Source: an uncultured Peptococcaceae bacterium (lineage in GTDB: Bacteria > Bacillota > Dehalobacteriia > UBA4068 > UBA4997). From it: a stretch of 64,000 nt of DNA. The translations under genes were made by a program, and so were the position numbers. The stretch covers positions 2,531 to 66,530 of the forward strand of contig CANQPG010000005.1 in NCBI GenBank assembly GCA_947625705.1. The letters are read 5' to 3'. Under the pieces are notes generated by a model. That model was not told the DNA's origin. It saw only the letters and a program-made list of their open reading frames with translations, and did no database searches. Below, piece after piece: positions 9,441 through 64,000 of this stretch; position 1 is the stretch's first letter, and every line of letters begins with the position of its first letter.

Positions 9441-9478
9441 AAAAAGCCCCGTTTCCCAAAAGCTTGGGAAACGGGGCT
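9441..9478 (-). terminator. Rho-independent terminator ending the giant-adhesin operon
   Basis: On the minus strand: GAGCCCCGTTTCCCAAGCTTTTGGGAAACGGGGCTTTTTGT, immediately after the stop at 9486. Confidence 0.65.
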
Positions 9479-9485
9479 CATTTAC

Positions 9486-12400
9486 TTAGGTCACGATAAA
9501 GTTGAAATGGCACTGTGCCAGCGGAGCCGTGCCCTGCCGCAGCTCAAAATAGACGCGGTAAGTGCCGGGCGTCATTCCGGCCGGCAATATCAGCTCACCG
9601 GAAAGGCCGTCAGCCGACATGGTATACGTCCAGCCGCTCGTCACAAAATCGGTGTAGCTGGCGTCTTCCGGTTTGGTGCCGGTCTTCCGCTTAACCGCGG
9701 TCAGCACGATACTTTCCCCGTCCGCCGGCGGTTGATCCGGTGTGATCCTGAACTCCAGGCTGCCGCCGGCAGCGCTGTCCACCAGCTGGCTGGCGCCGGC
9801 CGCCGGTTTGGCCACCATGCCCCTGCCATAGGAGGCGGCTTCGCCCCCACCGGATGCGGTCAATGCCAAATCGGGCGCGGCGGCGGAAGCAGCTTTAATA
9901 CTGCCGCTTTGGCAGATAGGCAGCGGGAAAAGCTCTGCCTTAACCGTTGTGCTTTCGTCCGGCGCGGCAAAGTCCCATTTTACCGCGGCGGTCTTGCCCT
10001 GCGTCAGCTGTGTTAAGGGCAGGAACACCGCGCCGTCGCCGACAATCAGATCAAGCTTCGTGCCGCCGGTATTGGCGGCTGCAACCTCCCCTGCCGCCGC
10101 ACCGGAAAGCCCGGTGAGCCGGATCAGCGAGCCGTCCATATAGTCCCAATCACCGGTGGGCGCCGTCACGGTAAGGGTGGTATCCGACCACGACATCGCC
10201 CCGTCCTCGGGCAGATCTGCCAACTTAAACGGCACTTCGCAGGTGGCGCAGCTGCCGGTGGGAAATTCCAGCGAGAAATAATATTCCCCGGGGTCAAGAC
10301 CGCTGTCTCGGAAATCCAGCAGGAAAAGCAGCGATTTGTCCACCACCGGCTGATTTTGCAGCGGCGGCTGCCATGGCCCCCGCCCGCGCACGTTGATCAG
10401 GTCGGTGGCTCTGATGGTTCCGTTCATGCCGCCGCTCTTAACATACCACCTGGGGTTGGCCGGATACGTGAGGTCGGCCATCAATATCCGGATCGGCGTG
10501 GTCACGACCTCGCCGGTGGAAGCGTTTTTCACCGAGATTTGGGGGAAACGTTCCGCGGCGTCGCCCTCGGTCAAAATGGGGGTATAGTTCAAAACCGTCT
10601 CCACGGTGATCGCGCCATTGGGCGCGACGGTGGGAGTAGTCAAATCAGGGGAATAAAACGTGCCATACTGCCGCCCAGCCTTAGCCCGCCCCGTCGATGT
10701 GCCCTCGCCCTGACCCTGGATCTCCACCTCAATGGTAAAGCGGCCGCGGCTGTCAGATGTCTCAGGCTCGCTCTTTTCATGCGCCAGCAGCGTGATGCAG
10801 ATCGTGCCGCCGGCCATTGTGCGGTTCGAGTACGAGAGATCAAAAGTGAAATACGGCAGGCCTTCAACCTTGGTTACCGGATAATGCGGCTGGGTATGCT
10901 GATAAATGATTTCGCCCACGTTGGGGTCAACAGTGCCGTCCGCATTGGTTTTATTCACAATATTGATATAGTGCATCTTGTCATGCCAAAGGTCGTCGTT
11001 TTGCAGCACATACATGGAGAGGGCTTGTGCCTGCGGGCTGCCCGCGGTGACGGGAGCAAGGTCTTTGGTGAGGATCGGCGTAAACTGCTCCAGATTGGGG
11101 TCAACGGGAACAAATACCGTGTCTTTGCGCACCGAAAGCGGCAGCGGAAACGTCAAGGTATCCTGATAATAGCCGTTGGCGTCCGGTGTGGTATCCTTAA
11201 GCTGCATCACCACGCGGGTTTTCACCGTGCGGCCGCCCAGCTGCCAATAATGATAACTTGCCGTCGCACCGGAATGAAGCGAAAGCCCCTCGGGCATCGT
11301 CTGATCCGGATCGGCCACGAACGCGCCGGTATTGATCTGCACGCCGTTTTCGTCCATGCCGTCAGGATCGCCGATATCGCTTTGCGTATTGGCGTGAATA
11401 AAGACGCCGTGATCCTCGGTATCCCCCTCGGAGCCCACCCAGCGCAGCGTGGTGACGCCCTTGACCTCGCCGTATGTCATCGTCTGGGTGCCGTTGGATA
11501 TCACCTTGGTGCCGATGATCAGCAGCTTGCCCGCCTGAATGGTGAGGACGTTGCCGTCTGCTTGCTCCGCCGGCGTGGCGCCGTCTTCCTTATAACTGCC
11601 GAAATTCGCCACCTCGTTGAGCTCGGTGTTGGCCGTCAGCTGCGATTTGACCAGTCTCACTTCCCCCCGCACCTGGGCGATGGAAAAGTCCAGATTGGTG
11701 CCGTCCACCTTATCGGTGGCGCCGGTCAAAGTGAGGTTACAGTTTTCAATGGTCACGGTATCGGCACGCTGCAGCGAATCGATCTCGCCGCTGAGGTTTT
11801 TCACATTGAGCGTGCGGGTGCCGCTGACCCGCGTCAGGTTACCGGAGCCGAAAATGCTGCCGCCGATGGTAACGTCGCCGGCGGTTTGCTCCACGTTAAC
11901 GGACGAATCGCCAAAGACGAGGAATTTTTCCTCATTGAATGTGGTGCCCTGGCCGTTGCAGCCGCCATAGATGGTCTTTTCCACGGTCACCGCCCCGGTA
12001 TCCGACGTAATATTCACAGCAGTGTCCCCGGTGATACGCGCCATGCTGGAGCCGCCGAACACCCTGAGGCCGATCCGGCCGCCCGAGATGTTAACGGTGC
12101 TGCTGCCAAAGACGGCGCCCAAGCCCTTGCCGCTGCCGACGCCGCTGCCGCCGCCGAACACGTCCCCGCTGATGAAACTCGTCTGCGCAACCGTGACGGT
12201 CGCGGAGCCGCCCACCGGGTTGGTTATTACCGCGGTTTCGTCAGTGTTGAACGTGCCCAAGCCCACCTTGCCGCAATAGCTGCCGCCGTAAACGCTGCCC
12301 AAAATCCTGCCGCCGGAGATCAGCACATTGGTCAAAACCGTGTTGGCGTCGGCGTTAAAGCCCCTGCCCTCCATGCCGATGGTGCCCAGCGAGCCGCCGC

Positions 12401-15400
12401 CATAGACATTGCCGTTGGCCACACTGCCGTCAATGCTTTCCTTGCCCACGGTGCCGCCGCTGATGCTAACGGTAGCAGAACGAGCCACCGCGCCGATGAT
12501 ATCGTCGGTGATATCCTCATTAATTTGCAGACCCTGGCCGCCGCCGTAGATATTCCCCGCGATGTCGCCGCCGGAGACTTCCACTTTGGTGGAGCCGCCG
12601 GCGCCGGCGTCGTCCCCCGCGTCAGTGATAACATTCTGCACCACGGCCTGGTCGCCGCCGCCGTAAACATTGCCGGTGACCAGGCCTCCCGATACAGATA
12701 CCGCTGTATCCCCGGTGACGGCGGCAGTCTCGGAATAACCGCCGCCATAAACATTACCCTGCACCGTGCCGCCCTGTACGGTAACGGCAGTATTGCCGGT
12801 AAGCTCGGCCTTATTGCCCCCGCCATAGACATTGCCGCTCACCGTGCCGCCGCGAATGTCAATAGTGGGGTTACCGGTGAGACTTGCCACATTGCCGCCG
12901 CCGTAGATATTGCCGCCCACACTGCCCTGATAAACGGTGACAAACGTGCTGCCGGTCATAGCGCTGCCGCTGTCCTCGACACCGGAAAGGCCGCCGAAGA
13001 CGCTGCCGGTCACACTGCCGCCCACCATGGTCAGTTTGGCGTCGCCATTGACCGTGCCCTCGTCCGAGGAAGCCACCAAATCGTTATTTATCGTGCCGCC
13101 GGCCATATAAACGCTGGAAAGACCGGAGGTGGAATTGCCTTTCTGATAGCCGCCGCCAAACAGGTAATTGGCCGAACCGCCCAGGAAGTGCAGATCACGG
13201 TTGCCCCCGGTCATGGAGACGCGGAAACTGCCGCCGTAAACGCGCTGATAATTGCCGCTGAAAATGGCCACCTGCGACGAGCCGTTAATAGCCGAAGTAC
13301 CGATACCGCCGCCAGTGCCGCCGAATATGTTGAGCGTGCCCGCAACCGTAATGCCATTGCCCATAATGAGCTTGTTGCAGGCGGCATAAAAAGCGTCAAA
13401 ATAATTCTCTCGCGTAAAGGAAGAATACTGCATCATATTGTCGTGCCCGGCGGACAACGCAATATCGCGGATAATCATCGGAGCTTCCAGTCTGGTAAAA
13501 ATATATTCCGAATCCAGCGAACAGGAATCCATGGAAAGCGTTCCGGTGCTGCCGGCCGCGGCAGCGGGATCAGTGCCGGTGACCGTACAAGGCAGTTCCG
13601 GTAAAGTATCGGTTCTGTTCCAATTAAAAATACTTCTCCCGCTCCAGCGCAGCTCGGCGTCGGTATCCACCACGATGATGTTCAGATACTTATCCTGCGG
13701 CGCCTGGCCGCCCGCATATACGCCAGTGAAATTGGCCATTGCCTGAGAAAGCGTATGCCCATAATCCCGCGATTGACTGTCAGCGCCGATGTCGCTCATA
13801 TACGCCGCAACACCCCAGTCCCACTGTGCCGTAAGCGTCGTGCCCGCCGGCACCAGATCGCCGGGGTCATAAGTGCTGCCGTCGTCGCCCAGCCAGCCGT
13901 CGAAGACGATAACCGTCTTGTATCTGCTGTCAGTCACACCGGGCGCGGCGATCTCCTGATTATCCGCGTCGTACAGTTTTTCCGGTGCGGCAAAGCCCAG
14001 ATCCTCCGGCCAGCGGGCATATGTCTGCTCGCCGTCCACGCAGGACATGGCAGCCGCCGTGCCGCTGCCCGTGCCGGGGGCAAACATCACCGTCGCCCCC
14101 TCCGCCAGAAGCACCAGCTCGTCGCTCCAGCAGGCGCATAAAATGGCCTCGCCGGCAGCCATATCCACCGGAAAAGCGTCGCCCGGGGCATATACCTGTT
14201 CACCCTCGGCGGTCAGCCAGCCCCGAAAAGTCCCCAACTCGGTGGCCGGGGCAAAAAATGCCGGGCAGGCCGGGGCGACCGCCTGACCGTTAAGCGCCAA
14301 AGCGCGCGCGGAAACCGCCTCGCCTGTTCCCGCGCCGGGAAGCAGATAAAGCGTAATTTCGCCGTCCGCCAATGTGTAGCCGGCCGCTTCGGCTGCGGCC
14401 AGGAATGTAAAATTCTCCGGGGCGCACAGGAACAAACCCGCCTGCCCGCCCGCGGCAGCGGGATAAAACACATCATTGCCCACCGTCTGCTGCGTGCGAA
14501 CTTCCACCCGATAATCGACCTGCGGTTCTTCGGTCTCCGCCGGCGTCGGTTCTTCGGTCTCGGCCGGTGCAGGTTCCTCGGTCTCCGCCGGCGTCGGTTC
14601 CTCAGTCTCCGCCGGTGCAGGTTCCTCGGTCTCCGCCGGTGCAGGTTCCTCGGTCTCCGCCGGTGCAGGTTTTTCGGTCTCGGCAGGCGCAGGCTCCTCG
14701 GTCTCCGCGGGCGTCGGTTCTTCGCTTTCCGCCGAGACATCATCTGCCGTTGCCGCCAAGGCAACTTTCGTACCGAATATGGCAGCAAGTATTGTGTTCC
14801 CGGTCGGGGTCTGCTCATCTTCCGCCGGCGCTGGCTGCTCGTCTTCCACCGGCGCCGGCTGCTCCTCTTCCGCCGGCGCGGGCTGCTCGTCTTCCACCGG
14901 CGCGGGCTGCTCATCTTCCGCCGGCGCGGGCTGCTCGTCTTCCGCCGGCGTTTGGTTCTCATCTTCCGCCGGCACTGGCTGTTCGTCTTCTGCCGGCGTT
15001 TGGTTCTCATCTTCCGCCGGCGTTTGGTTCTCATCTTCCACCGGCGCAGGCTGCTCATCTTCCGCCGGCACTGGCTGTTCGTCTTCTGCCGGCGCCGACT
15101 GCTCGTCTTCCGCCGGCGTTTGGTTCTCATCTTCCGCCGGCGCTGGTTCTTCCTCCTCGATCGGCTCCATCACGTCAGTCGGGTCAACGATCACAATGGG
15201 CGCAGATGTCGCAGGAGTGGTCACGACCTCCTCCAGCGATGTGAAATCATTAAATATGCAGGTAAAGTGCGGAGCTGCTGCCGCGTCCGCGCCGGAAAAG
15301 CAGCCGTCGCCCAATTCCAGCAGGCTGGCAGGCAGCGTCAATGTGCCCGTCAGGTTATAGCAGCCGTAGAACAAATAATCCCCCAGGCCGGTGACCCCCT

Positions 15401-15662
15401 CCGGTATCACCACCGCGGTGATCCGGTCGGCATATGGCGCCAGCGGTGCGGTTTCCGGGGTAAAATCATCGCTTGACCCCGTCCCCTCCAGCGTCAAAAC
15501 CCCGGTGGTGGATAAAACGGCGGTAAGCTCCGCCCCCACGGGGATACGCTCCGCCTCGTCCTCGGCGGTTACCACCGTAAACGACGTGAGGAATACACTG
15601 GTCAGCAAAGAAATGATCAGCAGAACCGACGTCAGCCGCTGCAATGACGTATATTGCCGCAT
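9486..15662 (-). CDS. Giant (2058 aa) secreted adhesin-like protein. Domains in order: signal peptide, BspA-type leucine-rich repeat, two acidic tandem-repeat arrays (PAEDEQPA x~15 and PAETEEPA x~9), a long Gly-rich predicted parallel beta-helix region (recurring NVYGGG / IYGGG motifs) and C-terminal Ig-like beta domains.
   Basis: ORF 9486..15662 with a consensus-like RBS. N-terminus MRQYTSLQRLTSVLLIISLLTSVFL. Repeats are visible in the protein and as 24-bp DNA repeats. It is the last gene of the sipW operon and is followed by a terminator. Confidence 0.85.
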   Translation of the reverse strand: MRQYTSLQRLTSVLLIISLLTSVFLTSFTVVTAEDEAERIPVGAELTAVLSTTGVLTLEGTGSSDDFTPETAPLAPYADRITAVVIPEGVTGLGDYLFYGCYNLTGTLTLPASLLELGDGCFSGADAAAAPHFTCIFNDFTSLEEVVTTPATSAPIVIVDPTDVMEPIEEEEPAPAEDENQTPAEDEQSAPAEDEQPVPAEDEQPAPVEDENQTPAEDENQTPAEDEQPVPAEDENQTPAEDEQPAPAEDEQPAPVEDEQPAPAEEEQPAPVEDEQPAPAEDEQTPTGNTILAAIFGTKVALAATADDVSAESEEPTPAETEEPAPAETEKPAPAETEEPAPAETEEPAPAETEEPTPAETEEPAPAETEEPTPAETEEPQVDYRVEVRTQQTVGNDVFYPAAAGGQAGLFLCAPENFTFLAAAEAAGYTLADGEITLYLLPGAGTGEAVSARALALNGQAVAPACPAFFAPATELGTFRGWLTAEGEQVYAPGDAFPVDMAAGEAILCACWSDELVLLAEGATVMFAPGTGSGTAAAMSCVDGEQTYARWPEDLGFAAPEKLYDADNQEIAAPGVTDSRYKTVIVFDGWLGDDGSTYDPGDLVPAGTTLTAQWDWGVAAYMSDIGADSQSRDYGHTLSQAMANFTGVYAGGQAPQDKYLNIIVVDTDAELRWSGRSIFNWNRTDTLPELPCTVTGTDPAAAAGSTGTLSMDSCSLDSEYIFTRLEAPMIIRDIALSAGHDNMMQYSSFTRENYFDAFYAACNKLIMGNGITVAGTLNIFGGTGGGIGTSAINGSSQVAIFSGNYQRVYGGSFRVSMTGGNRDLHFLGGSANYLFGGGYQKGNSTSGLSSVYMAGGTINNDLVASSDEGTVNGDAKLTMVGGSVTGSVFGGLSGVEDSGSAMTGSTFVTVYQGSVGGNIYGGGNVASLTGNPTIDIRGGTVSGNVYGGGNKAELTGNTAVTVQGGTVQGNVYGGGYSETAAVTGDTAVSVSGGLVTGNVYGGGDQAVVQNVITDAGDDAGAGGSTKVEVSGGDIAGNIYGGGQGLQINEDITDDIIGAVARSATVSISGGTVGKESIDGSVANGNVYGGGSLGTIGMEGRGFNADANTVLTNVLISGGRILGSVYGGSYCGKVGLGTFNTDETAVITNPVGGSATVTVAQTSFISGDVFGGGSGVGSGKGLGAVFGSSTVNISGGRIGLRVFGGSSMARITGDTAVNITSDTGAVTVEKTIYGGCNGQGTTFNEEKFLVFGDSSVNVEQTAGDVTIGGSIFGSGNLTRVSGTRTLNVKNLSGEIDSLQRADTVTIENCNLTLTGATDKVDGTNLDFSIAQVRGEVRLVKSQLTANTELNEVANFGSYKEDGATPAEQADGNVLTIQAGKLLIIGTKVISNGTQTMTYGEVKGVTTLRWVGSEGDTEDHGVFIHANTQSDIGDPDGMDENGVQINTGAFVADPDQTMPEGLSLHSGATASYHYWQLGGRTVKTRVVMQLKDTTPDANGYYQDTLTFPLPLSVRKDTVFVPVDPNLEQFTPILTKDLAPVTAGSPQAQALSMYVLQNDDLWHDKMHYINIVNKTNADGTVDPNVGEIIYQHTQPHYPVTKVEGLPYFTFDLSYSNRTMAGGTICITLLAHEKSEPETSDSRGRFTIEVEIQGQGEGTSTGRAKAGRQYGTFYSPDLTTPTVAPNGAITVETVLNYTPILTEGDAAERFPQISVKNASTGEVVTTPIRILMADLTYPANPRWYVKSGGMNGTIRATDLINVRGRGPWQPPLQNQPVVDKSLLFLLDFRDSGLDPGEYYFSLEFPTGSCATCEVPFKLADLPEDGAMSWSDTTLTVTAPTGDWDYMDGSLIRLTGLSGAAAGEVAAANTGGTKLDLIVGDGAVFLPLTQLTQGKTAAVKWDFAAPDESTTVKAELFPLPICQSGSIKAASAAAPDLALTASGGGEAASYGRGMVAKPAAGASQLVDSAAGGSLEFRITPDQPPADGESIVLTAVKRKTGTKPEDASYTDFVTSGWTYTMSADGLSGELILPAGMTPGTYRVYFELRQGTAPLAQCHFNFIVT
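14524..14735. repeat. Tandem array of ~9 x 24-bp coding repeats (PAETEEPA units) inside the giant adhesin gene
   Basis: Seen directly: the unit ggttc(t/c)tcggtctc(c/g)gccgg(c/t)g(t/c)(c/a)g is iterated. Confidence 0.8.
14805..15165. repeat. Tandem array of ~15 x 24-bp coding repeats (PAEDEQPA/PAEDENQT units) inside the giant adhesin gene
   Basis: Seen directly: the unit ctggctgctcgtcttccaccggcg is iterated with minor variants. Confidence 0.8.
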
Positions 15663-15696: not shown

Positions 15697-16596
15697 TCAG
15701 TTGGTCGCCGCGGGCGCTTCGGCAACGGTATATGTAAAATCGCTCTCGCTGTAAACGTCCTCGGTATTCCTTTTCAGCAGAACCAGCGAGACCGTGCCCT
15801 GCGCGGGGATCAGCAGCGTACCCGTACCGGTGGCGTCAGTCGCCTGGGTCTCCCAGGTCGGATCCGGCACCAGCCGCATATCCTTATCCCGGGAATCCTC
15901 GGCCAGCAGATAAAACTCGCTGACCTTCAGCTTCAGACCCTCCACCAAGCAATCCTTTTGGCCGGTATTGTAAAACGTCACAGCCACCGCGCCATAGCTG
16001 CCTTTGCGGTCGGTCACTTTCATCACCACGGCGCTGTCCGCTGCCGCCAACGCCACCTGGGCGGTCAGCGTTTTGGCGTAAGGCGCGGTGGAGACCACGC
16101 TCACGGTCACCTCGTCAGTCCCGTCGGCGCCGAACGCTGCCACCGGGATCAGGCAGGTTATCGTCCTGTCGTTGACCGCCTTGCCGGCGATGGTTCCGCC
16201 GCTCCCGGTGCTGCCGCCGTCGTTCCAGGTAACGTCCACCGTATCGCCCGCCTGATTGACCGCGGCGCAGGTGTACATGATATCATTTTGGGTGGGAAAA
16301 TCCGCCACCGCATAATTCTTCAGCGTAAATGTGAAAGGCACCGTTTTGCCGCTTTCGTCGGGCGAGATACGGTGCAGCGTGCCGTCCAGCTCGCTGCTGG
16401 TAAAATAGAAATCCCCCGCCGTCACCAGCGAGTTATTCGACCAGTCCTGCAAATAACGGGCAGCGGTCACGCCCAGCATGGCCGCTGCGGCAAGGACTGC
16501 CGCCAGCAGCAGCAGACGCACCGCCGGCGGGCGGTGGAGAAAAGACGGGCGTCCGGCCGCCGTTTCGGCAGATTTTCGGGCTTGCTGCTGCGCCAT
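15697..16596 (-). CDS. Secreted TasA/BsaA-like protein 3, a putative SipW-cognate substrate. It has a long basic N-region, a hydrophobic core, and then the motif TAA|RY.
   Basis: N-terminus MAQQQARKSAETAAGRPSFLHRPPAVRLLLLAAVLAAAAMLGVTAARYLQDWSNNSLVTAG, which resembles SipW-cognate signal peptides (TIGR04088-like ...A.Y..D...NN...AG). The mature part is beta-rich and Thr/Gly-rich. RBS GGGGGAGGAAAA lies upstream. It is in an operon with sipW. Confidence 0.6.
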   Translation of the reverse strand: MAQQQARKSAETAAGRPSFLHRPPAVRLLLLAAVLAAAAMLGVTAARYLQDWSNNSLVTAGDFYFTSSELDGTLHRISPDESGKTVPFTFTLKNYAVADFPTQNDIMYTCAAVNQAGDTVDVTWNDGGSTGSGGTIAGKAVNDRTITCLIPVAAFGADGTDEVTVSVVSTAPYAKTLTAQVALAAADSAVVMKVTDRKGSYGAVAVTFYNTGQKDCLVEGLKLKVSEFYLLAEDSRDKDMRLVPDPTWETQATDATGTGTLLIPAQGTVSLVLLKRNTEDVYSESDFTYTVAEAPAATN

Positions 16597-16644
16597 TTTT
16601 CCTCCCCCTCTCCGCTGATATAACAGGTTGATATCCGCCGCTGC

Positions 16645-17229
16645 TCAGGCGTCGGTGCTGAGCCGCTGCCGCGCCAGCACGGTAACGGTCACCAGATCGA
16701 TCTCGTCGGCATAGCCCGCGTCGCTGGCCGCCTGCGGCCAGTTGACCGTCAGCGTATAAGTGTGCTCCTGCCTGGCCAATTTGCCGTCGGCGGCGTCCTG
16801 CACCAGCGGGAAAGCGCCGCCGGTGAGCGTTTGGCTTTTGGCGCCGCCCGTCAATATCGTTCCCGTATCGGTGACGGTGCCGGCAGTGCCCGCGTCCCGG
16901 GCTGCGGCAAGCTCAAACTCCAGCGGCAGATTGCCGGTGGTCTCCACCGTAATGTCATAATCCAACGCCACCTCGCTGACGGCGTCATCTTTATAGTTCA
17001 CAACTTTGAATTGCAATGTTTGGGGGTCGCTGCCGGGGAACATGCCCTCAATGACCATGCGGATAGGTTCGCCGCCGCCCGCCGCCATTGCGGCCACCGT
17101 GGCCGTGCCGCTGCCGCCCGTCGTGGCGGCATACCGCGCCAGGGTCACCGAAACTATCAGGGTGGTGACCAGCCCCAGATAGATCAGATAGAGCCAGAGC
17201 CGACTATACTTTTTTCCCGGTATCCTCAT
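16645..17229 (-). CDS. Secreted TasA/BsaA-like protein 2, a putative SipW-cognate substrate. It carries the motif TLA|RYAATTGGSGTATVAAMA.
   Basis: N-terminus MRIPGKKYSRLWLYLIYLGLVTTLIVSVTLARYAATTGGSGTATV. The start overlaps the 3' end of sipW1 (translational coupling). It shares the motif with protein 1 (TLAKYASEASGTATATVAKWA). Confidence 0.6.
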   Translation of the reverse strand: MRIPGKKYSRLWLYLIYLGLVTTLIVSVTLARYAATTGGSGTATVAAMAAGGGEPIRMVIEGMFPGSDPQTLQFKVVNYKDDAVSEVALDYDITVETTGNLPLEFELAAARDAGTAGTVTDTGTILTGGAKSQTLTGGAFPLVQDAADGKLARQEHTYTLTVNWPQAASDAGYADEIDLVTVTVLARQRLSTDA

Positions 17230-17719
17230 GCTGCTCCGCCCCCCGTTTCTCCGGCAGAAAAATCAATATCGCGCCCCCGGCCGCCAAAAGCAATATGCCA
17301 AGGGGCTTTTGCAGCAACATCAACAGCTCGCCCGCCCCGGGCAGGCACAGCACCACCCGCCCCAGCACGTCCGCCGGGGGCACCGCCGCATCGTCGGGGG
17401 TGTTGTTGGCGTCGCCGCGGGTACGGTAAGCCGCCGCCGTTTTCTCGATAATTCGGTGGGTCACCACCGCGCCCTCCTGCCGAAAGGTGATGATATCCCC
17501 CACCGCATAATCCGCCTCGCGGTGGGCGATGACCATTGAACCGGCGGGGAGCGTTGGCTCCATGCTGCCGGTGGTGACGATCATCGGATAAAATCCCAGC
17601 ACGTGCGCCGGTTCCTGGTGCAGCACAAAGCGGGAAACCAGCAGCCCCATATCAACGGCCAGCACCAACGCCAGCAGGCAGACAAGTATGCCCCGGATAA
17701 ATCTCAGCAGCGTCCTCAT
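17204..17719 (-). CDS. sipW: Signal peptidase I, SipW/Sec11 (ER/archaeal) type, copy 1
   Basis: Motifs TGSMEPT, VTHRII and RGDANNTPD match the B. subtilis SipW boxes (SGSMEP / THRIV / GDNN). It has an N-terminal TM segment and a C-terminal TM segment. Confidence 0.85.
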   Translation of the reverse strand: MRTLLRFIRGILVCLLALVLAVDMGLLVSRFVLHQEPAHVLGFYPMIVTTGSMEPTLPAGSMVIAHREADYAVGDIITFRQEGAVVTHRIIEKTAAAYRTRGDANNTPDDAAVPPADVLGRVVLCLPGAGELLMLLQKPLGILLLAAGGAILIFLPEKRGAEQHEDTGKKV

Positions 17720-19026
17720 ACTGCGTCCTCCACCCGTATGTTCAGATGCAGGGTATAGATCCGGCCGTCGCGGCTGCCGAGAGCGGTGTCCACAACGTCG
17801 TTGCCGTCAAAAGGCCAGCGCCATTCAATGCGATAGCGCCGCTCACCGCTCGCCGCCAGCTGCACTGCACTGCTGACCGTTTCGCTGTCCAGAGCGGCAG
17901 TCTGCCAGTCCGTAAGCCCCCTGGGGGTCAGTTCATCAGTGGCCAGGCGGTATTCCAGGGGAATATGAAAATCCCCCTCCTTGATACCCAGGGTAAATTT
18001 GATGGCTCGGCTGCGGCCGTTTTTCACCCGAAAAAGATAATACCCCTCCGAGCCCGGCGCGATCAGCCTCTCGCCGTAGCCGTCCAACGGGCGGAACAGG
18101 TCGATCTCGGCCTGCTGCGTCCAGGTCTGCCAGCTCGCGCGGTCATCGCTGCGGCTGACCTCGACGGTTCCGGGGTCAGTATCGGGCGGCGTGGGCGGTT
18201 TGGGGTCAGGGTCGGTTCCCGAACCACCGCCGCCACCTCCGCCATCATCAGCACCGCCATCATCAGGCGCGGGCGCCGGCTTATCGGTGGGCTTATCGTC
18301 CGGTTTATCACCCGGTTTGTCCATCGGCTTGTCCGTGGGTTGTTCCGTCGGCTGCTCGCCGGGCTTGTCCGTCGTCTGCTCGCCGGGCTTAGCCCCCGGC
18401 GGTTCCGCCGGCGTTGTGCCGGGGCTGGCCGCCGCCTCATCTGCCTCACGGGTGCCTCTAAGCTCCACGTCAAGCCCGCCGTCGCCGTCCAATGTCAGTT
18501 CCACGTCCACCTCAACGGTCACGACCTTAATGTGCAGCACGCACACCATTGCTTCATAGTCAATGTAAGCGTCGCTCGCCGCGTCGCGAACCACGCGAAT
18601 GGTGCGGCCGGCCAGCACATTGCCCGCCGGATCCAGCACCGATAGCTCATGCTCCCCCGGCTCCACCTCATCAAAACGAAAATGCCCCGTCTCACTCAGG
18701 CGGGCGTAACGGGGCTCGCTATGGAGTTCCACCGAACCCTGCGAAAAAGGCGTGCCGTTGGTATAATGCACCACGCCCACAATGCTGATCCGCTCCGTCA
18801 GCTCCCCGGTTTGCGTGTTATCCGCAGGCGGCTCGGGCTGATCTGCGGGCGTAAGAACGATGGTGTCGATCAGCGCACCGGAGCGCCCGGGATCGGTGGT
18901 TCTGCCCAGCAAAAAGCCCACAATGCAGGACGTGGCCAGCATCAGAAACAGCAACAGCAGCAGCAAAGGCAGAATGATCCTGCGCTTTTGCCGTGCCGCC
19001 GTTTTTGCCTGAGCAGCTGTGTTCAA
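17716..19026 (-). CDS. Membrane-anchored accessory protein. Domains in order: N-terminal TM segment, transthyretin/carboxypeptidase-regulatory-like beta-sandwich domain, Pro/Asp/Lys-rich linker (DKPGEQPTEQPTDKP...), and a C-terminal globular domain. It is possibly a TapA-like fibre anchor or assembly factor.
   Basis: ORF 17716..19065. The probable real start is TTG at 19026, preceded by AAGGAGGAA plus a 7-nt spacer. The N-terminus is then MNTAAQAKTAARQKRRIILPLLLLLLFLMLA. A GSVEL...GHFRFDEVEPGEHELSV beta-sandwich motif is present. It lies between the two sipW modules. Confidence 0.55.
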   Translation of the reverse strand: MNTAAQAKTAARQKRRIILPLLLLLLFLMLATSCIVGFLLGRTTDPGRSGALIDTIVLTPADQPEPPADNTQTGELTERISIVGVVHYTNGTPFSQGSVELHSEPRYARLSETGHFRFDEVEPGEHELSVLDPAGNVLAGRTIRVVRDAASDAYIDYEAMVCVLHIKVVTVEVDVELTLDGDGGLDVELRGTREADEAAASPGTTPAEPPGAKPGEQTTDKPGEQPTEQPTDKPMDKPGDKPDDKPTDKPAPAPDDGGADDGGGGGGGSGTDPDPKPPTPPDTDPGTVEVSRSDDRASWQTWTQQAEIDLFRPLDGYGERLIAPGSEGYYLFRVKNGRSRAIKFTLGIKEGDFHIPLEYRLATDELTPRGLTDWQTAALDSETVSSAVQLAASGERRYRIEWRWPFDGNDVVDTALGSRDGRIYTLHLNIRVEDAV

Positions 19027-19144
19027 AATCGGTTCCTCCTTAGGGAAAAACACAAATAAGATCAACGCAAAAAGTTTCGGCTCTCGGCGGAAAACGTCCC
19101 CAAAACGTGCTCCGCCGAAGGCCGAAGCCTCCGGCGAAGTAAGT

Positions 19145-19771
19145 TTAGGAAACTTTCTGTTCAGCCTTGATGGTAACAGGAATGTTGTAAGTCAGCGTGC
19201 CGGCAGCGGAATCAGTGCCAACCTTGGTGTCAAGTTTGTCCCCTGTAAGAGTGTTATCATAATCGGTCGCGTCCCACTTCCAGTAAACAGTCTGAGTAGA
19301 CTTCTTGGAAGCGGCATTAGTCAGCACATCGCCGGTCAGGGTGGCTTTGCCGCCGGTCACGGTCAGGGGAGTATTGCAAGTGGAATCGGAATAGAACTTG
19401 ACCGGTGCCTTAGCAATAGCAGGATCGCTCATGTCCATTTCGATAGTGTAAGTAAACGCAACCTCGGTGCCGGTGCCGTCCACCGCCAGCTGGAACGAGC
19501 CGGTGGTGCCGGGAGCGATCTTATCGGCCGCCACCAGGTTGGCATTTTCCTTAGCCGTGTCTTTCAAATTCAACGCGATCTGGGTCGTATCGTCGTACTC
19601 TGTGGAACCCCCGTCAGTGAACTTGATCGCCCACTTGGCCACCGTCGCCGTAGCAGTACCGCTGGCCTCGCTGGCATACTTGGCCAGCGTGCCCGCCGTC
19701 AAACTCATGGTGACCAGACACAACACCAGCGTCAGGACGGTAAGCCGGCCGACAATTCCTTTCTTTTTCAT
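19145..19771 (-). CDS. Secreted TasA/BsaA-like protein 1, a putative SipW-cognate substrate and likely the major subunit. It carries the motif TLA|KYASEASGTATATVAKWA.
   Basis: N-terminus MKKKGIVGRLTVLTLVLCLVTMSLTAGTLAKYASE. RBS AGGAGGAAACGAACATG. It lies immediately downstream of sipW2. The mature part is beta-rich and Thr/Gly/Asp-rich. Confidence 0.6.
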   Translation of the reverse strand: MKKKGIVGRLTVLTLVLCLVTMSLTAGTLAKYASEASGTATATVAKWAIKFTDGGSTEYDDTTQIALNLKDTAKENANLVAADKIAPGTTGSFQLAVDGTGTEVAFTYTIEMDMSDPAIAKAPVKFYSDSTCNTPLTVTGGKATLTGDVLTNAASKKSTQTVYWKWDATDYDNTLTGDKLDTKVGTDSAAGTLTYNIPVTIKAEQKVS

Positions 19772-19800: not shown

Positions 19801-20460
19801 TTATTTTGACCGCGTTTCCGCGGCTTGGAGCCCATCTTCGGTGTTCTCGCCCCGCTCCAATTCTTTCAGGCGGGCTTCCAGCTCCTGCGTCCGCGCTTTT
19901 TCGCGCCGGGCGTCCATGCTGCGGCGCAGCACGTCCCACCCCACCAGGATCAGCAGCGGGCAGATGATAAACACGATCATGCCGGTGGTGGTCTGCATAA
20001 ACATGGCAAGCGACCCCAGCTTCGCAATATGTATGCCGGTGTAGACGCCCTCTACCTGTTCGGGACTTACTGCCAACTGGTCGGCAGTGTTATTGGCGTC
20101 GCCCCGGGTGACATAGCGCACCTCGCCGTCCACCTGCGTCACCTCGGCGATACGGTGGGTAACCGCAATGCTTTCACCGGTAAGGTAGCAAATCACATCG
20201 CCTTGAGAAAGCCCCGCCGGGTCGTCGGTATGGCGAATGAAAATCATATCGCCGGCGGCAAATGTCGGCTCCATCGAGTCGGAAAGACATATCACCGGGC
20301 TGTAACCCGCCACGCTGGGAATATGGTCAGCGTCGGTATAGGTTTTGGTGATCAGAACCAGATTGATCAGAATGATCGGAATAAAAATCAGGCAGAGAAT
20401 ACCGCCAAGCACATTGATCAGAACCCCGCCGGAGCTCTTTTTTTCTTGCCGAGACGTCAT
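19801..20460 (-). CDS. sipW: Signal peptidase I, SipW/Sec11 (ER/archaeal) type, copy 2. It is the first gene of the operon.
   Basis: Motifs SDSMEPT, VTHRIA and RGDANNTAD. The ORF track starts at TTG 20544. The ATG at 20460 is preceded by AAGGAGG plus a 5-nt spacer, which gives MTSRQEKKSSGGVLINVLGGILCLIF. Confidence 0.85.
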   Translation of the reverse strand: MTSRQEKKSSGGVLINVLGGILCLIFIPIILINLVLITKTYTDADHIPSVAGYSPVICLSDSMEPTFAAGDMIFIRHTDDPAGLSQGDVICYLTGESIAVTHRIAEVTQVDGEVRYVTRGDANNTADQLAVSPEQVEGVYTGIHIAKLGSLAMFMQTTTGMIVFIICPLLILVGWDVLRRSMDARREKARTQELEARLKELERGENTEDGLQAAETRSK

Positions 20461-20580: not shown

Positions 20581-20609
20581 ATTATAAATGTACAATTCGG
20601 CTGTGTCAA
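20581..20609 (-). promoter_or_regulatory. Consensus sigma-A-type promoter for the sipW-fibre-adhesin operon: TTGACA-17 nt-TATAAT
   Basis: Seen directly on the minus strand: cTTGACAcagccgaattgtacattTATAATaata. It lies about 115 nt upstream of the sipW2 ATG. Confidence 0.55.
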
Positions 20610-57780: not shown

Positions 57781-57813
57781 GTTTATTTATACTCCGTTTT
57801 TAATTCTTAAAAT

Positions 57814-58719
57814 TTAATACCATGAGCCTTTACCACCCCAATAACCTGTTAGTTTCAACTCAAGCATACCACCATCATCATCAAAAGCTTGATAATAAAT
57901 GCTGCTATCAGCCAAATACCAGCAATCCTTCACCATATTATACAAATATATTTGATTACCTTCGCCATGTACAAATTGCCACTTTGCAACCAAATCGCCG
58001 GTGCGGTTATAAAAGCTGTATATTGAACCCAACAAATCAAGCGGAGTATACTTTGCAGGCGGGGCAACTTCTGCGCCTTGCCCCTCATATATCATGTATA
58101 TGCAGGTATTTATAATATCTTTGGTACGTATTGTTATGCACTGCTCCTCAGAAGATTTCTCTAACTTCATTGAATAAATAGGCTCGCCATCAATTGGTTG
58201 ACCCGGCAGAATAATTCTTACCACATCGGACTCATATTCAACCACACAATCAAGTTGTTCTGATAAGAAAGACAGCGGCAGCATGAGCTTTCTGTTTTTT
58301 AAATAGGGAACGCCACTCAATTCTTGCTCATACGTAAAATCCTTACATTCTAGCAGTTTTTGCAGAACAGATATGCCACTCTTCATATATGGCAATCTGC
58401 TCATTACCTGCATATAACGGCCTAGTGGTAGTTGAGGTAAGGATATTCTGATGGTTGCTTTTTGCTTACCACATACCAGTTCAATGCAACAATTGCTTTT
58501 GCTAATTATAAACACATCCCCATCTTGATGAAGATCTGCACCAATTTTCTTGGTAAGCGATTGTATTGGAACATAAATAAGTCCGTCATTCGTTTCAGGA
58601 GGCACGTCAAAATCCAATGCCTCACCATCAATACCAATATGCAACGCCCATGCAGGTGTTGCGGTATAAAACAAAATTATACTCAATATGACAGCAAACC
58701 ATAATTTTATTCTTCTCAT
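57814..58719 (-). CDS. Secreted protein with a copper-amine-oxidase N-terminal-like ('stalk') domain. Cassette 1, gene B.
   Basis: Signal peptide MRRIKLWFAVILSIILFYTATPAWA. The motif NDGLIYVPIQSLTKKIGADL resembles the CuAO-N domain signature (..yvPlR.la..lGa.v.w). It is AT-rich. Confidence 0.55.
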   Translation of the reverse strand: MRRIKLWFAVILSIILFYTATPAWALHIGIDGEALDFDVPPETNDGLIYVPIQSLTKKIGADLHQDGDVFIISKSNCCIELVCGKQKATIRISLPQLPLGRYMQVMSRLPYMKSGISVLQKLLECKDFTYEQELSGVPYLKNRKLMLPLSFLSEQLDCVVEYESDVVRIILPGQPIDGEPIYSMKLEKSSEEQCITIRTKDIINTCIYMIYEGQGAEVAPPAKYTPLDLLGSIYSFYNRTGDLVAKWQFVHGEGNQIYLYNMVKDCWYLADSSIYYQAFDDDGGMLELKLTGYWGGKGSWY

Positions 58720-58727
58720 TTTATTAC

Positions 58728-59864
58728 CTAAAATTTAATTGTATGTTTTTGACTAACTATACTTCCGGATGTATTACAGTTGAACGGCGGGAAATTAGCT
58801 GTACCAAAAATCTTGTTATTCTCCATCCAGCTATCTAATAGCGAAGAGTCCAAATCAATCATGTTATAATTACCAGACGTGCTGCTTTTACATAATTGTG
58901 TGTCATAATATTGAACAATTATTGTACCCAGACTGAGCTGCCCATCATAACCACCGTTATATCCCAATCCAGTTACACGCCCAGAACGCAGATTATTGAT
59001 TTCTGCATTGCTAAATGATTTTGCATAACCTAATACTATATACTGCATCTTACCATCAATATTTGTGCCATTGATATAATATTTCGCTTTTTTACTTGTA
59101 GATTCATATCTTAAGTTGTGCGTTATTGTAGTATTTCTTTTAAAACGCGTTGGCACATCACCATTGACATCTTCAAAATTTAAAGCCCCGCCATTAACTC
59201 TAATATATGGTGAATAGTCCAATTTAAGAATATTAAATTGGACCCCACCTTCCATATCAAAACCATTACCACTTAATATATTATAAATATATGGAACACT
59301 ACCATTTTCCGGTTTAAAATAATTGGTTGTCATGCCTATACTATATAGAGTTGGTAAATGAACTTTTGAAGTGATACCCATATATCCAGTTTTGGATACC
59401 TGCCTAATAAATGCTCCACTATCTTGACCAACAATTATATTTGCTCTCTCTGAGTCCGTCTGCATATTTTCTATTTCAACATTATAGTTCCCCAAATCAC
59501 AGTTGTCATAATTTAAGCTTCCAACATAGCCCTCTTCAGAAAAAACTCTCCCATCCTCTGTCAAATAATACACAAAAGCATTGTCAATAAGTTCTTTAAT
59601 AGCATTTTCTATATCTACAGCCATCGAAGTTTCCTGAACATTGATGGATTCCAAAAAAGCTTTTTGGTCAAGCAAGTTCATTTGCTTATAGTTTTGCAGT
59701 TGATACTCAACTTCTTCCTGTCTTAACTTGGCAATTTCTGTGACATAATCAATATCGTCATTTTCCTCCGCCGCCCAAGCCGGCATAGCAATCCCCAAAC
59801 AAATAATCAATGAAAGGATCATCGCTAATAAGCTTCTGCGTTTCATAAAAGAAACCTCCTCCAA
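58728..59864 (-). CDS. Secreted Asn/Tyr/Gly-rich protein of unknown function. Cassette 1, gene A.
   Basis: Signal peptide MKRRSLLAMILSLIICLGIAMPAWA|AEEN. This is almost identical to the signal peptide of 61192..62415. The mature part is divergent. RBS GGAGGAGG. Confidence 0.6.
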   Translation of the reverse strand: MEEVSFMKRRSLLAMILSLIICLGIAMPAWAAEENDDIDYVTEIAKLRQEEVEYQLQNYKQMNLLDQKAFLESINVQETSMAVDIENAIKELIDNAFVYYLTEDGRVFSEEGYVGSLNYDNCDLGNYNVEIENMQTDSERANIIVGQDSGAFIRQVSKTGYMGITSKVHLPTLYSIGMTTNYFKPENGSVPYIYNILSGNGFDMEGGVQFNILKLDYSPYIRVNGGALNFEDVNGDVPTRFKRNTTITHNLRYESTSKKAKYYINGTNIDGKMQYIVLGYAKSFSNAEINNLRSGRVTGLGYNGGYDGQLSLGTIIVQYYDTQLCKSSTSGNYNMIDLDSSLLDSWMENNKIFGTANFPPFNCNTSGSIVSQKHTIKF

Positions 59865-59867
59865 AAA

Positions 59868-60110
59868 TGTAAATAGTAACGATAAACATGGCTGATCTGC
59901 TCGCCAATCTAAGCATTTCTACCCCCTAACTCCCTCCTGCCCCTAATATGATTTCCGAGCAAAATCTTTGCCTTTATTTACCGTCCTACTTATATATTCC
60001 CGCAAAAGTCGATTTGGTGACATTTTTTGGCAATTTTTTCAAAAAAATTTATCATAATGACAAAAAAGTCAGATAGACCGTTAACGGCCTATCTGACTTT
60101 TATTATTGTT
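59868..60110. repeat. Island inter-cassette element, copy 2. It is ~240 bp and comprises a terminator, a promoter-like region and a conserved ~130-nt 5' leader of the downstream minus-strand gene.
   Basis: Aligns with 62435-62680 along its full length with few mismatches. Confidence 0.8.
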
Positions 60111-60207
60111 AACGATCAAACTGAATGTCCGACGAGACTAATCAAGCGAAAATGCAGCGCACTGTTATCTGCCTTTACAAATATTATATTATACCCCATA
60201 GTATTAG

Positions 60208-61176
60208 CTATTCTGATAAGGCTTTAAGCATAGTTTGCTCTCCGCCATCCAGTGGCAGCAGATATCTGCCATAAGTTTGCTGCATCAATTCCTCATCTTC
60301 GACAACATCATCTGATAACGCAGCTTCTGCTATCCCGTTAATCAGCACACCTTCATTCTTAACCCGCCAGTCCTTCGGCTGAGTGGTGTAACCGGTCAGC
60401 ACATACAGCGGTCCATCCTTCTTTATGGTTATGTTATATAGATAATCAGGATCGCCGAGCTGCGTTTTTTTACCATCAGTTAAATCAACGGCATATACGC
60501 GGTATTTATCGCCAAAGCCCATTTGCATTGCCAAATAATAGCATACCCCATCCTTTATCTGCCAATCTGTAATATTCCAATCAGCGGCCAAACGCCGACA
60601 TTGCCCGTCAGATTTAAGCTCCCAAAGGTAATCCGTGCCGGTTGTCCCCTCGCCCAGATGAACCGTCCGATAACAAGCCTCCTGCCCGGCGGCTTTCTTA
60701 ATGGGAGTGTATTTCATACCATCATAATATTGCCATTGCCCGGCAATATAAACAAAAGGAAAATCAACCTCAATCTGCTGCTGTTCTCTATTCCAATGAA
60801 CCTTAACCTCACATAAATTTCTTATCGCATAAAGCGGCAGATAAAGCTGATTGTTACGAATCAAAGGCTCTCTACTCTCATTCATTTCTTTGCCATCCAA
60901 ATACCATTTGCCGCCAGTCAGCTTAAAAACCGTAGTATCCAGCCCAGTGCTTACGGTAGCCTGTTTGTTGGCATTATCCCAGTCAATCGTCACGCAGCAA
61001 AGCTCAATAGTATCGCGCAGTGGTAAATACGCTGTTTCATTCTGAATAAAGGCCGTCAACTTGCCTGTTTCACCGTTAAAACTTATTGGACAAGTCGCCG
61101 TTGTTGCTGCCAGAACAGCCTGTGGCATAAAGCAAAATACTAAACAAATTAAGCCAAATGCAATTTTTTGTTTCAT
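60208..61176 (-). CDS. Secreted protein with a copper-amine-oxidase N-terminal-like domain. Cassette 2, gene B.
   Basis: Signal peptide MKQKIAFGLICLVFCFMPQAVLA. Motifs NETAYLPLRDTIELCCVTIDWD and NQLYLPLYAIRNL. Confidence 0.55.
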   Translation of the reverse strand: MKQKIAFGLICLVFCFMPQAVLAATTATCPISFNGETGKLTAFIQNETAYLPLRDTIELCCVTIDWDNANKQATVSTGLDTTVFKLTGGKWYLDGKEMNESREPLIRNNQLYLPLYAIRNLCEVKVHWNREQQQIEVDFPFVYIAGQWQYYDGMKYTPIKKAAGQEACYRTVHLGEGTTGTDYLWELKSDGQCRRLAADWNITDWQIKDGVCYYLAMQMGFGDKYRVYAVDLTDGKKTQLGDPDYLYNITIKKDGPLYVLTGYTTQPKDWRVKNEGVLINGIAEAALSDDVVEDEELMQQTYGRYLLPLDGGEQTMLKALSE

Positions 61177-61191
61177 AATAATCGCCTTTAT

Positions 61192-62415: not shown

Positions 62416-62434
62416 AAAAGAACCCTCCTTAAAA

Positions 62435-62680
62435 AATTAAATAGTAACGATAAACATGGCTGATCTGCTCGGCAATCTAAGCATTCCTACCCCCGAAGCT
62501 CCTTTCTGCCCCTAATATGATTCTGGGCAAAATCCTGCCTTTATTTACCGTCCTACCTATATATTCCAAAACAAGTGCGTTTGGTTACATTTTTTTGACA
62601 ATTTTTTCAAAAAAGTTTATCATAATGACAAAAAGGCAGATGGACCGTTAAAGGTCTATCTACCTTTTTGTCATTAAAAG
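62435..62680. repeat. Island inter-cassette element, copy 3 (~240 bp)
   Basis: Aligns with 59868-60110. Confidence 0.8.
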
Positions 62681-62716
62681 CTCACTAAGTCTTTTTTCTT
62701 TTTGGGCACCTGCAAT

Positions 62717-63622: not shown

Positions 63623-64000
63623 TTCGGTGAATATAAGAATTAGTACAATCTATAGTACCATACCATTGATTATTTTTCCAATTACTATATTCACTATATG
63701 AACTCCATGCTTTGGAGTTGTTTTCATAGTAGCGTTTAACAAATACATTAGCATATTTTTGATTTAACGATTTTGTACTTATATTACTACCATTAAAACT
63801 CGTCTTGCCAATAGAAGTCATCCTTTTTACGGATACACCATTAATATTTGCGTTATTAAATCCTGTATTTGCTGAATGTAAGTAATCAGGACCATACAAG
63901 TATGCTGTATAATTAGCATCAGCAGTAGATGATTTTTTTAAGAAGAAACTAACATCCTTAATAGTATCACCGGAGTAAAAGGGGAATTTTTCTGCATAAG
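63594..64000 (-). CDS. 3' part of a cassette-3 gene A (Asn/Ser/Tyr-rich protein). Its 5' end lies beyond the window.
   Basis: The minus-strand frame is open from 64000 down to the stop at 63594. The TTG/Met shown in the ORF track is internal. Confidence 0.4.
   Translation of the reverse strand, partial: YAEKFPFYSGDTIKDVSFFLKKSSTADANYTAYLYGPDYLHSANTGFNNANINGVSVKRMTSIGKTSFNGSNISTKSLNQKYANVFVKRYYENNSKAWSSYSEYSNWKNNQWYGTIDCTNSYIHRSGSYVSIYK

Follow-up and report, generated by a model that had tools for sequence, protein, structure and literature searches.

A conserved signal-peptide junction in an operon with SipW-like peptidases points to a probable, unannotated TasA-like fibre system in gut Clostridia

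A 64,000-nucleotide stretch of DNA from an uncultured Peptococcaceae bacterium (contig CANQPG010000005.1, positions 2,531 to 66,530; hereafter the window) encodes three small secreted proteins, P1, P2 and P3, that share a T-x-A|[K/R]-Y motif at the end of their signal peptides. The question raised by this locus is what such a shared junction serves. In the original prediction, it was considered to fit a dedicated recognition and cleavage site of a SipW-type signal peptidase, and the mature N-terminus behind it to be a possible donor strand in polymerisation. On the evidence presented here, we consider it reasonably probable that the motif is the c-region of a specialised Sec signal peptide together with the start of the mature protein; the junction would be cleaved by a SipW-like peptidase, and a donor-strand fibre would result.

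As originally described, the hydrophobic core is closed by TLA-KY in P1, by TLA-RY in P2 and by TAA-RY in P3. Each protein has a single hydrophobic segment, an h-region of ∼18–20 residues (scored with a 19-residue window) with small residues at −3 and −1 at its end, and it is this segment that the junction motif closes. A type IV pilin-like signal was ruled out, as the motif is positioned after the h-region rather than before it. Beyond the junction, P1 and P2 have in common a Gly at +8, the residues T-A-T-V-A at +11 to +15, and an Ala at +18. The tracts of P1 and P2 had been called near-identical, which is roughly right (SGTATATVAKWA versus GSGTATVAAMA), although the literal pattern GTATxxVAxxA fits P1 only. 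A second A-x-A-like site in P1 of the window (SEA|S, +4 to +7) is not conserved, the would-be −1 residue often being Val or Ile. Conceivably, a motif as short as this one could be shared through chance or composition, in particular in an Ala/Thr-rich, high-GC (guanine plus cytosine) genome. T.A[KR]Y is matched seven times in the six frames of the window (∼128,000 codons), and three of these seven matches are the P1–P3 junctions, all of them at the same topological position; according to a rough estimate, the chance of three such matches at three h-region ends is ∼1e-11. A chance origin of the motif is therefore excluded by these counts, and coincidence is furthermore refuted by the conservation of the motif across low-GC and high-GC relatives, so that we attribute a negligible probability to it.

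This conservation was scored in the P1 and P2 families. For P1, 69 database relatives were collected, none of which has a Pfam domain and of which the few with a source name are listed as 'hypothetical'. The motif, the Tyr at +2 and an Ala or Ser at −1 were found in all 69 of them, and a Thr at −3 in 64. The junction in this family reads G(−4) T(−3) [L/Y/F](−2) A(−1) K/R(+1) Y(+2) and is followed by G+8, A+12, V+14, A+15 and W+17; the P1 residues Y32, A45 and W47 were invariant in 37 homologues. For P2, a search of 50%-identity cluster representatives yielded 522 relatives at E≤0.001, and the junction was scored in the 150 best. The strict pattern [T/S]-x-[A/S]-[R/K]-[Y/F] was present in 114 of these, while the others were mostly variants (L-Y-A-R-Y, T-L-S-G-Y) with a few N-terminally truncated or multidomain proteins among them. 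The Ala at mature position 15 was kept in 112 of the 114 strict-motif representatives. Indeed, nowhere are the otherwise divergent P1 and P2 proteins as well conserved as at the junction and over the first ∼17 residues of the mature chain, which bears out the earlier claim of a conserved mature N-terminal segment. The steadiest features are the small residue at −1 and the aromatic residue at +2. A basic residue at +1 is frequent but not obligatory, as is evident from the variants TLSGY, TYSAY and TLSSY, and Arg is found instead of Lys in 7 of the 69 P1 relatives and in 78 of the 114 strict-motif P2 representatives.

The exchange of Lys for Arg bears on another potential role of the junction, in which the +1 Lys would serve as the nucleophile of a covalent cross-link between subunits, either of the isopeptide or of a sortase-like type, as in the Clostridium perfringens fibre protein BsaA or in sortase pili. 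There is a precedent for this in BsaA-type fibres, where donor strands are locked by Asn-Lys isopeptide bonds (PMC11580942). Since Arg and Lys interchange freely at +1, an isopeptide role is disfavoured for the proteins studied here. In addition, Asn is absent from the putative donor segments of P1 and P2, and the operon has neither a sortase gene nor an LPXTG motif nor a match to TIGR04090. A covalent cross-link is thus very improbable in our view; the BsaA-type lock was ruled out because of the missing Asn and the replacement of Lys by Arg, and a sortase pilus because of the missing LPXTG motif and the lack of a sortase gene in the operon.

In the window, seven genes, all on the minus strand, are located between one promoter and one terminator and form an operon in the order sipW-like 1, P1, p449, sipW-like 2, P2, P3 and a gene for a 2058-amino acid (aa) protein (Table 1). 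The second sipW-like gene overlaps with both neighbours, its end with the start of P2 by 26 nt (17204–17229) and its start with the end of p449 by 4 nt (17716–17719), which suggests that the second peptidase and the adjacent genes are translationally coupled. The original prediction did not include the two sipW-like genes, the core domain in p449, or the extension of the operon into the gene for the 2058-aa protein. For synteny, the window was compared with eight further loci from low-GC and high-GC Clostridia, including Enterocloster bolteae. The order that recurs in these loci is sipW, P1, an anchored core-domain protein, (a second sipW), P2, P3 and a giant protein; exceptions are locus L002, where the order varies, and locus L010, which is reduced to sipW-P2-P3-giant. 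In a search of genome contigs for which P1 alone was the query, one distant Lachnospiraceae locus was returned. It had been argued beforehand that absence of the motif from orthologous loci would speak against its proposed function. We looked at this in the eight further loci, and the junction motif was present in every counterpart of P1, P2 and P3 that they contain.

P1, P2 and P3 are members of one protein family. The P1 and P2 families were matched over their full length by hhalign (99.6%, E 6e-24), and still at 98.7% without the signal peptides. For the P3 family, an alignment built from six loci gave a match of 97.6% (E 3e-12) to the P2 family, in which the motifs of the two families are aligned. 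To relate these proteins to TasA of Bacillus subtilis, an alignment of the TasA/CalY family was used as a profile for hhalign, the TasA sequence having been checked against the PDB. The fibre structure 8AUR begins at A28 of TasA, which sets TasA cleavage at T-W-A|A-F. Against this profile, the P2 family gave a match of 93.5% (E 2.3e-7, 83 columns) in which TLARY was positioned on TWAAF and the hairpin PG[S/D]..F.V.N...EV on LKPGD..F.F.N...KEV of TasA. The alignment with the TasA signal peptide, as originally proposed, thus placed the N-terminus of the P2 family in register by profile–profile comparison. Without signal peptides, P2 and TasA were matched at 86.5% over 38 columns of the PG[DS]..F.V.N...EV hairpin. 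The hairpin corresponds to TasA residues ∼51–88 and overlaps with strand 48–61, by which the TasA monomer complements itself until an incoming donor strand takes its place (PMC9674648). Since the hairpin corresponds to TasA ∼51–88, the 22 mature P2 residues in front of it correspond to TasA 28–50, that is, to the donor strand and a linker. The donor strand of TasA consists of residues 28–38, and F29 is among its hydrophobic contacts (PMC9674648). By its position in the alignment, the invariant Tyr at +2 would be the counterpart of F29, and the register of the junction with TasA would identify the operon as a fibre system of the TasA type in gut Clostridia that has so far escaped annotation.

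If the junction is cleaved like that of TasA, candidate peptidases are encoded in the operon. Both peptidases of the operon match TIGR02228, the model for signal peptidase I of the archaeal/endoplasmic reticulum (ER) type, with 98.9 bits for peptidase 1 and 80.1 bits for peptidase 2 (cutoff 51.85), and both have the Ser, His and Asp motifs SMEP, THR and GDAN as well as N- and C-terminal transmembrane (TM) segments. In SipW of B. subtilis, a Ser, a His and an Asp have been reported to be critical. Translation of peptidase 1 probably begins at the ATG that follows a GGAGG site; the listed open reading frame (ORF) extends to 20544. The best named relative of both peptidases is SipW of Bacillus (NF046067; 116.8 and 70.3 bits), and as these scores are below the equivalog cutoff of 190, the peptidases are not strict SipW orthologues. 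Each of the nine loci contained a SipW-like gene, often in duplicate. Supporting a connection between peptidase and substrate, P0164 (361 aa) and P0190 (331 aa) naturally combine a SipW-like peptidase and a P2-like substrate in one fused chain, in which the basic n-region, the h-region and the TFSKY or TVAARY junction of the substrate are kept after the C-terminal TM segment of the peptidase. Such a topology would expose the junction to the extracytoplasmic active site, and the fusions may be self-processing precursors. It is from the TasA register, the synteny and these fusions that we infer both the cleavage position and the dependence on SipW.

The constant presence of SipW-like genes, their frequent duplication and the peptidase-substrate fusions all argue against an ordinary signal peptidase I site that any housekeeping signal peptidase would cut and in which [K/R]-Y and the downstream residues are kept for assembly or folding only; likewise, BsaA and TasA require their SipW (PMC7395162). 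This explanation, which we regard as rather unlikely, does draw on several features of the junction: Thr or Ser at −3 and Ala or Ser at −1 obey the generic rule, the +1 residue is not strictly basic in the TLSGY-type variants, and the aromatic residue at +2 aligns with a donor-strand contact, F29 of TasA. In addition, the ABP pilins of archaea, which belong to the TasA superfamily, are cut by a generic peptidase (PMC9245690). The dedicated SipW site of the original prediction is thus supported in part. The peptidase genes in the operon, the conservation of the motif and the register with TasA speak for it, whereas nothing supports K/R-Y as the element that SipW recognises; since position +2 aligns with F29, the conservation of its aromatic residue may reflect assembly rather than the specificity of the peptidase.

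A further member of the family lacks the junction altogether. The C-terminal ∼165 residues of p449 were matched to the P1 family by hhalign (96.5%), and an alignment of eight p449-class proteins gave a match of 98.4% (E 7e-15) that was confined to P1 residues 60–208. The core domain is present in this class, while the K-Y...T-A-T-V-A-K-W segment and the junction motif are missing. The proteins start with an N-terminal hydrophobic anchor, which is followed by a spacer of very variable length (total protein length 214–934 aa) that consists either of CarboxypepD_reg and a PT- or Gly/Ser-rich linker, or of cadherin-like repeats. Because the donor segment is missing and the stalk is variable, p449 is likely an acceptor-only anchor. 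In AlphaFold models of the P1 and P2 monomers, the β-sandwich cores were confident, with a mean predicted local distance difference test (pLDDT) score of 81 and 84, respectively, while the residues after the junction were disordered or of low confidence, P1 residues 29–40 having a pLDDT of <50. By analogy, the low pLDDT, the conservation and the absence from the p449 class would fit an N-terminal donor strand like TasA 28–38; it is the analogy with TasA and the pattern of conservation that lead us to propose strand donation.

The same models contain a hint of a different arrangement, since in P2 the predicted helix runs through the motif (H9–38). The hydrophobic segment might accordingly stay uncleaved as an N-terminal membrane anchor, the motif being a juxtamembrane dock for SipW-like proteins or other partners. 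We judge this to be highly unlikely: cleaved signal peptides typically have the n-h-c layout seen here, with small residues at −3 and −1 where the h-region ends, cleavage at this very site occurs in TasA, the in-register homologue, and the motif-less p449 looks like the dedicated tethered form.

Two side observations concern the anchor of the p449 class. Its hydrophobic segment closes with a conserved Cys, which is part of LATSC in L008, L009 and the window and of LLSSC in E. bolteae; given this likeness to a lipobox, p449 may be anchored as a lipoprotein instead of by a TM segment. The p449-class proteins of L002, L004 and L011 do not have the motif. Furthermore, in the 934-aa p449-class protein of L005 (8651–11455), which has cadherin-like repeats, T-A-T-R-Y ends the N-terminal hydrophobic segment. 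This is a degenerate junction with Thr at −1, and it may represent a stage between the cleaved and the tethered forms.

Several results weigh against the proposed relationship with TasA and against processing by a SipW-like peptidase. With hhalign, neither mature P1 against mature TasA nor the P1 and P3 families alone against the TasA family gave a significant match. TIGR04088, the model of the SipW-cognate signal peptide (cutoff 19 bits), was not matched at E≤10 by the full-length proteins or their isolated N-termini, while TasA as positive control scored 38 bits, and the operon proteins did not match PF12389 or TIGR04090 either. When the P1 and P2 models were compared with the PDB by Foldseek, no match was obtained at E≤1e-3 and TasA was outside the top 50. 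A basic residue at +1 is moreover unusual for Sec substrates. Since the family models, Foldseek and the P1 comparison were negative, the link to TasA rests on a short profile–profile match. The weak Foldseek matches were to β-sandwiches of a generic kind, namely integrin, FimG (E ∼0.007–0.015), collagen-binding domains, the C-terminal domain of CPE and viral jelly rolls, and to the cannula protein CanA (E 0.047). NF046066 and TIGR04089 were likewise not matched by the operon proteins, scans of P1–P3 and of the 37 P1 homologues with Pfam and NCBIfam identified no family (none of the 37 matched the TasA models), the database relatives are without any Pfam domain, and a search of PDB sequences with the P1 profile gave nothing significant. 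The proteins are not placed in the curated families of TasA, BsaA or the SipW-cognate signal peptide. We treat them as a family of their own, which would function in the manner of TasA and is probably a remote relative of it.

Taken together, we propose the following sequence of events. P1, P2 and P3 would be exported by Sec via signal peptides of which the n-h-c organisation is apparent from the sequence. One or both co-encoded SipW-like peptidases would then cut between the small residue at −1 (Ala or Ser) and the Lys or Arg at +1, that is, after A30 in P1, A31 in P2 and A46 in P3. The new N-terminus, [K/R]-Y-x-[S/T]-x3-G-x3-A-x-V-A-x-[W/F], would be inserted as an extended donor strand into the β-sandwich of a neighbour, with the Tyr at +2 in the role of TasA F29 and, together with A-x-V-A-x-[W/F], forming the buried face. 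In this way, the subunits would be linked into a non-covalent fibre, which p449, as a membrane-tethered and acceptor-only base on a long stalk, would hold on the cell. P2 and P3, the latter with its extra C-terminal domain, could speculatively be minor, adaptor or tip subunits. With p449 as the base, subunits would be added distally by free N-termini and removal of the signal peptide would be a prerequisite for assembly, which would account for the union of cleavage site and donor strand in one conserved element. A more elaborate version can be put forward only tentatively, and we hold it to be possible rather than probable: the operon might encode a so far undescribed heteropolymer on the surface of gut Clostridia, cultured Enterocloster species among them, with subunits that SipW-type peptidases release and strand donation polymerises. 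The p449 class would be its acceptor-only base, with a polarity opposite to that of the TapA-first model, a giant BspA-like leucine-rich repeat (LRR) adhesin of >2000 aa would be coupled to the fibre through P2 and P3, and K/R-Y would be both a specificity element for the peptidase and a donor-strand plug.

P3 had been likened to B. subtilis TapA on account of its long basic N-region. Such a region is indeed present, comprising 27 residues with five Arg or Lys, and the start of P3 is backed by a strong GGAGG ribosome-binding site. However, its length is not conserved, being long in the window and L009 and short in L004, L007, L010 and L011. Moreover, the TapA model TIGR04087 did not match P3, and its only match, by the N-terminus of P1, was sub-threshold (11.7–14.6 bits versus a cutoff of 80). 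A TapA-like role of P3 based on the length of the N-region was consequently rejected. P3 is a possible initiator or tip, a role for which the N-region gives no support.

Table 1. Coordinates of the operon features in the window and of selected counterparts in other loci
Feature	Position	Strand	Remarks
Sigma-70-type promoter	20581..20609	-	TTGACA-17-TATAAT, 12/12; upstream of first peptidase gene
sipW-like signal peptidase 1	19801..20460	-	TIGR02228 match; SDSMEP, THR, GDAN motifs; N- and C-terminal TM segments
P1	19145..19771	-	208-aa secreted β-sandwich protein, presumed major subunit
P1 junction T28-L-A30|K31-Y32	19676..19690	-	Predicted cleavage after A30
P1 conserved mature N-terminal segment K31-W47	19631..19681	-	KYASEASGTATATVAKW; putative donor strand
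p449	17716..19065	-	449-aa membrane protein; hydrophobic anchor, CarboxypepD_reg, PT-rich linker, C-terminal family core domain
p449-class gene with Cys motif, window	17716-19065	-	Motif at ∼residues 40-47 of listed ORF
p449-class gene with Cys motif, L007	7140-8891
p449-class gene with Cys motif, L009	5144-6577
sipW-like signal peptidase 2	17204..17719	-	171 aa; TIGR02228 match; GSMEP, THR, GDAN motifs
P2	16645..17229	-	194-aa secreted family member
P2 junction T29-L-A31|R32-Y33	17131..17145	-
P2 conserved mature N-terminal segment R32-M48	17086..17136	-	RYAATTGGSGTATVAAM
P3	15697..16596	-	299 aa; N-region long and basic, N-terminal half of the family type, additional C-terminal domain
P3 junction T44-A-A46|R47-Y48	16453..16467	-
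2058-aa secreted giant protein	9486..15662	-	BspA-type LRR N-terminus; acidic Pro-rich 8-residue repeats
Giant protein, L007	10409-17374
Giant protein, L008	13087-18627
Giant protein, L009	8889-14609
Giant protein, L010	8352-14555
Giant protein, L011	8336-14561
Intrinsic terminator	9444..9479	-	Strong; 16-bp stem + T-run; ends operon

Downstream of P3, the window and no fewer than five further loci encode a giant secreted protein of >2000 aa, which in most cases has a BspA-type LRR N-terminus (Table 1). In the window, its gene is located within the promoter-terminator unit of the operon and appears to be co-transcribed. Its signal peptide is of the ordinary type (VTA|ED), LPXTG, SLH and TM anchors are all absent, and the hhalign comparison of the P1 and P2 families with the 2058-aa protein revealed no family domain. 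Two arrays of a 24-bp tandem repeat at 14524–14734 and 14811–15146 (8.8 and 14 copies, respectively) encode its repeats PAEDEQ.. and PAETEE.., and may provide a spacer of variable length.

Two other observations were made along the way. At ∼57800–64000 of the window, on the minus strand, the GC content falls from ∼60% to 37–40%, and copper amine oxidase N-terminal-like domains (PF07833) are present in three of the proteins encoded there, a YrpD domain in another; the region has the look of a cell-envelope protein island obtained by horizontal transfer. In addition, the very large proteins P0107 (3139 aa) and P0189 (1111 aa), with 26 and 10 matched stretches, respectively, contain a segment like the middle of the P2 core (..TTGNLPL.F..) in numerous tandem copies, which may represent a related Ig-like repeat or a likeness at the motif level only, for example to DUF11/CARDB-like repeats.

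The general principle of SipW-type processing and donor-strand fibres is already known from TasA, BsaA and archaeal pili, and fibres of the TasA superfamily are increasingly recognised across domains of life as a means of building biofilm matrices and pili, with TasA/CalY of Bacillus and BsaA of C. perfringens as the known bacterial examples. What is new here is a family without a Pfam or NCBIfam model, annotated only as hypothetical where at all, together with its junction and N-terminal signature. Also new is the conserved clostridial operon, in which a tethered and presumably acceptor-only paralogue is combined with one or, often, two peptidases and with a giant protein of the LRR type. Despite the invisibility of the family to Pfam and NCBIfam, 522 relatives of P2 were found, and the operon is conserved in gut Clostridia such as E. 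bolteae. The junction and the N-terminal segment constitute a simple sequence signature by which such systems can be found, and they allow the mature N-termini to be predicted precisely. With the p449 class as candidate membrane anchor and the giant LRR protein as candidate adhesin, the operon provides a testable model for surface fibres of commensals.

Compared with known systems, the resemblance to chaperone-usher pilins such as FimG is one of concept, namely an incomplete Ig-like fold that is completed by the N-terminal strand of a neighbour; in contrast to these pilins, the present system has no chaperone or usher and belongs to a Gram-positive envelope, and the FimG matches were not significant. 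In archaea, genes for a pilin, a tip protein and a membrane anchor are combined with that of a dedicated signal peptidase in the Tafi, ABP and AbpX loci (PMC12337348; PMC9245690; bioRxiv 10.64898/2026.01.04.697558). The locus logic of Tafi (TafA/E-TafC-TafF-TafD), AbpX and AbpA/AbpB, with major and minor or tip subunits, an anchor and a signal peptidase I, is also that proposed for the operon described here. Donor-strand complementation is a property of the archaeal pili and is proposed for our subunits as well; the likeness is one of gene layout and assembly principle. Unlike those loci, the present one is bacterial, employs Sec-type rather than Tat signals and two-TM rather than ten-TM AbpX-type peptidases, and has no DUF5305 accessory protein.

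Closer to our operon is sipW-bsaA-bsaB-bsaC of C. perfringens, which is likewise clostridial, starts with sipW and encodes several remote TasA-like paralogues. For the SipW-BsaA fibres, with several paralogues per operon, heteropolymers have been proposed (PMC7395162; PMC11580942). Models of the BsaA monomer have a disordered N-terminal segment that is predicted to insert into the neighbouring subunit (PMC11580942), and a disordered N-terminal segment is likewise seen in our monomer models. Differences are that TIGR04090 is not matched, that an N-E-K lock is unlikely as P1 K31–W47 and P2 R32–M48 are devoid of Asn, and that the vWA protein BsaC is replaced by a tethered core-domain protein and a BspA-like giant.

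With regard to tapA-sipW-tasA of B. subtilis, the SipW-dependent TasA fibres of which are assembled by donor-strand exchange (PMC9674648), our operon differs by its two peptidase paralogues and the giant LRR protein, and its proteins differ from TasA by a smaller core (∼150 aa), the basic +1 residue and the absence of the N-D of TasA at +3/+4. TapA is described as acting via strand complementation (PMC10151520) and is proposed to donate the first strand, whereas p449 has a core domain without a donor segment. What the two operons share is an archaeal/ER-type signal peptidase adjoining its substrates and several paralogous substrates in one operon, while the proteins share with TasA the T-x-A|x-aromatic junction in register, a conserved mature N-terminus that would be the counterpart of the donor strand, the PG[DS]..F.V.N hairpin and a terminal ..A.Q strand.

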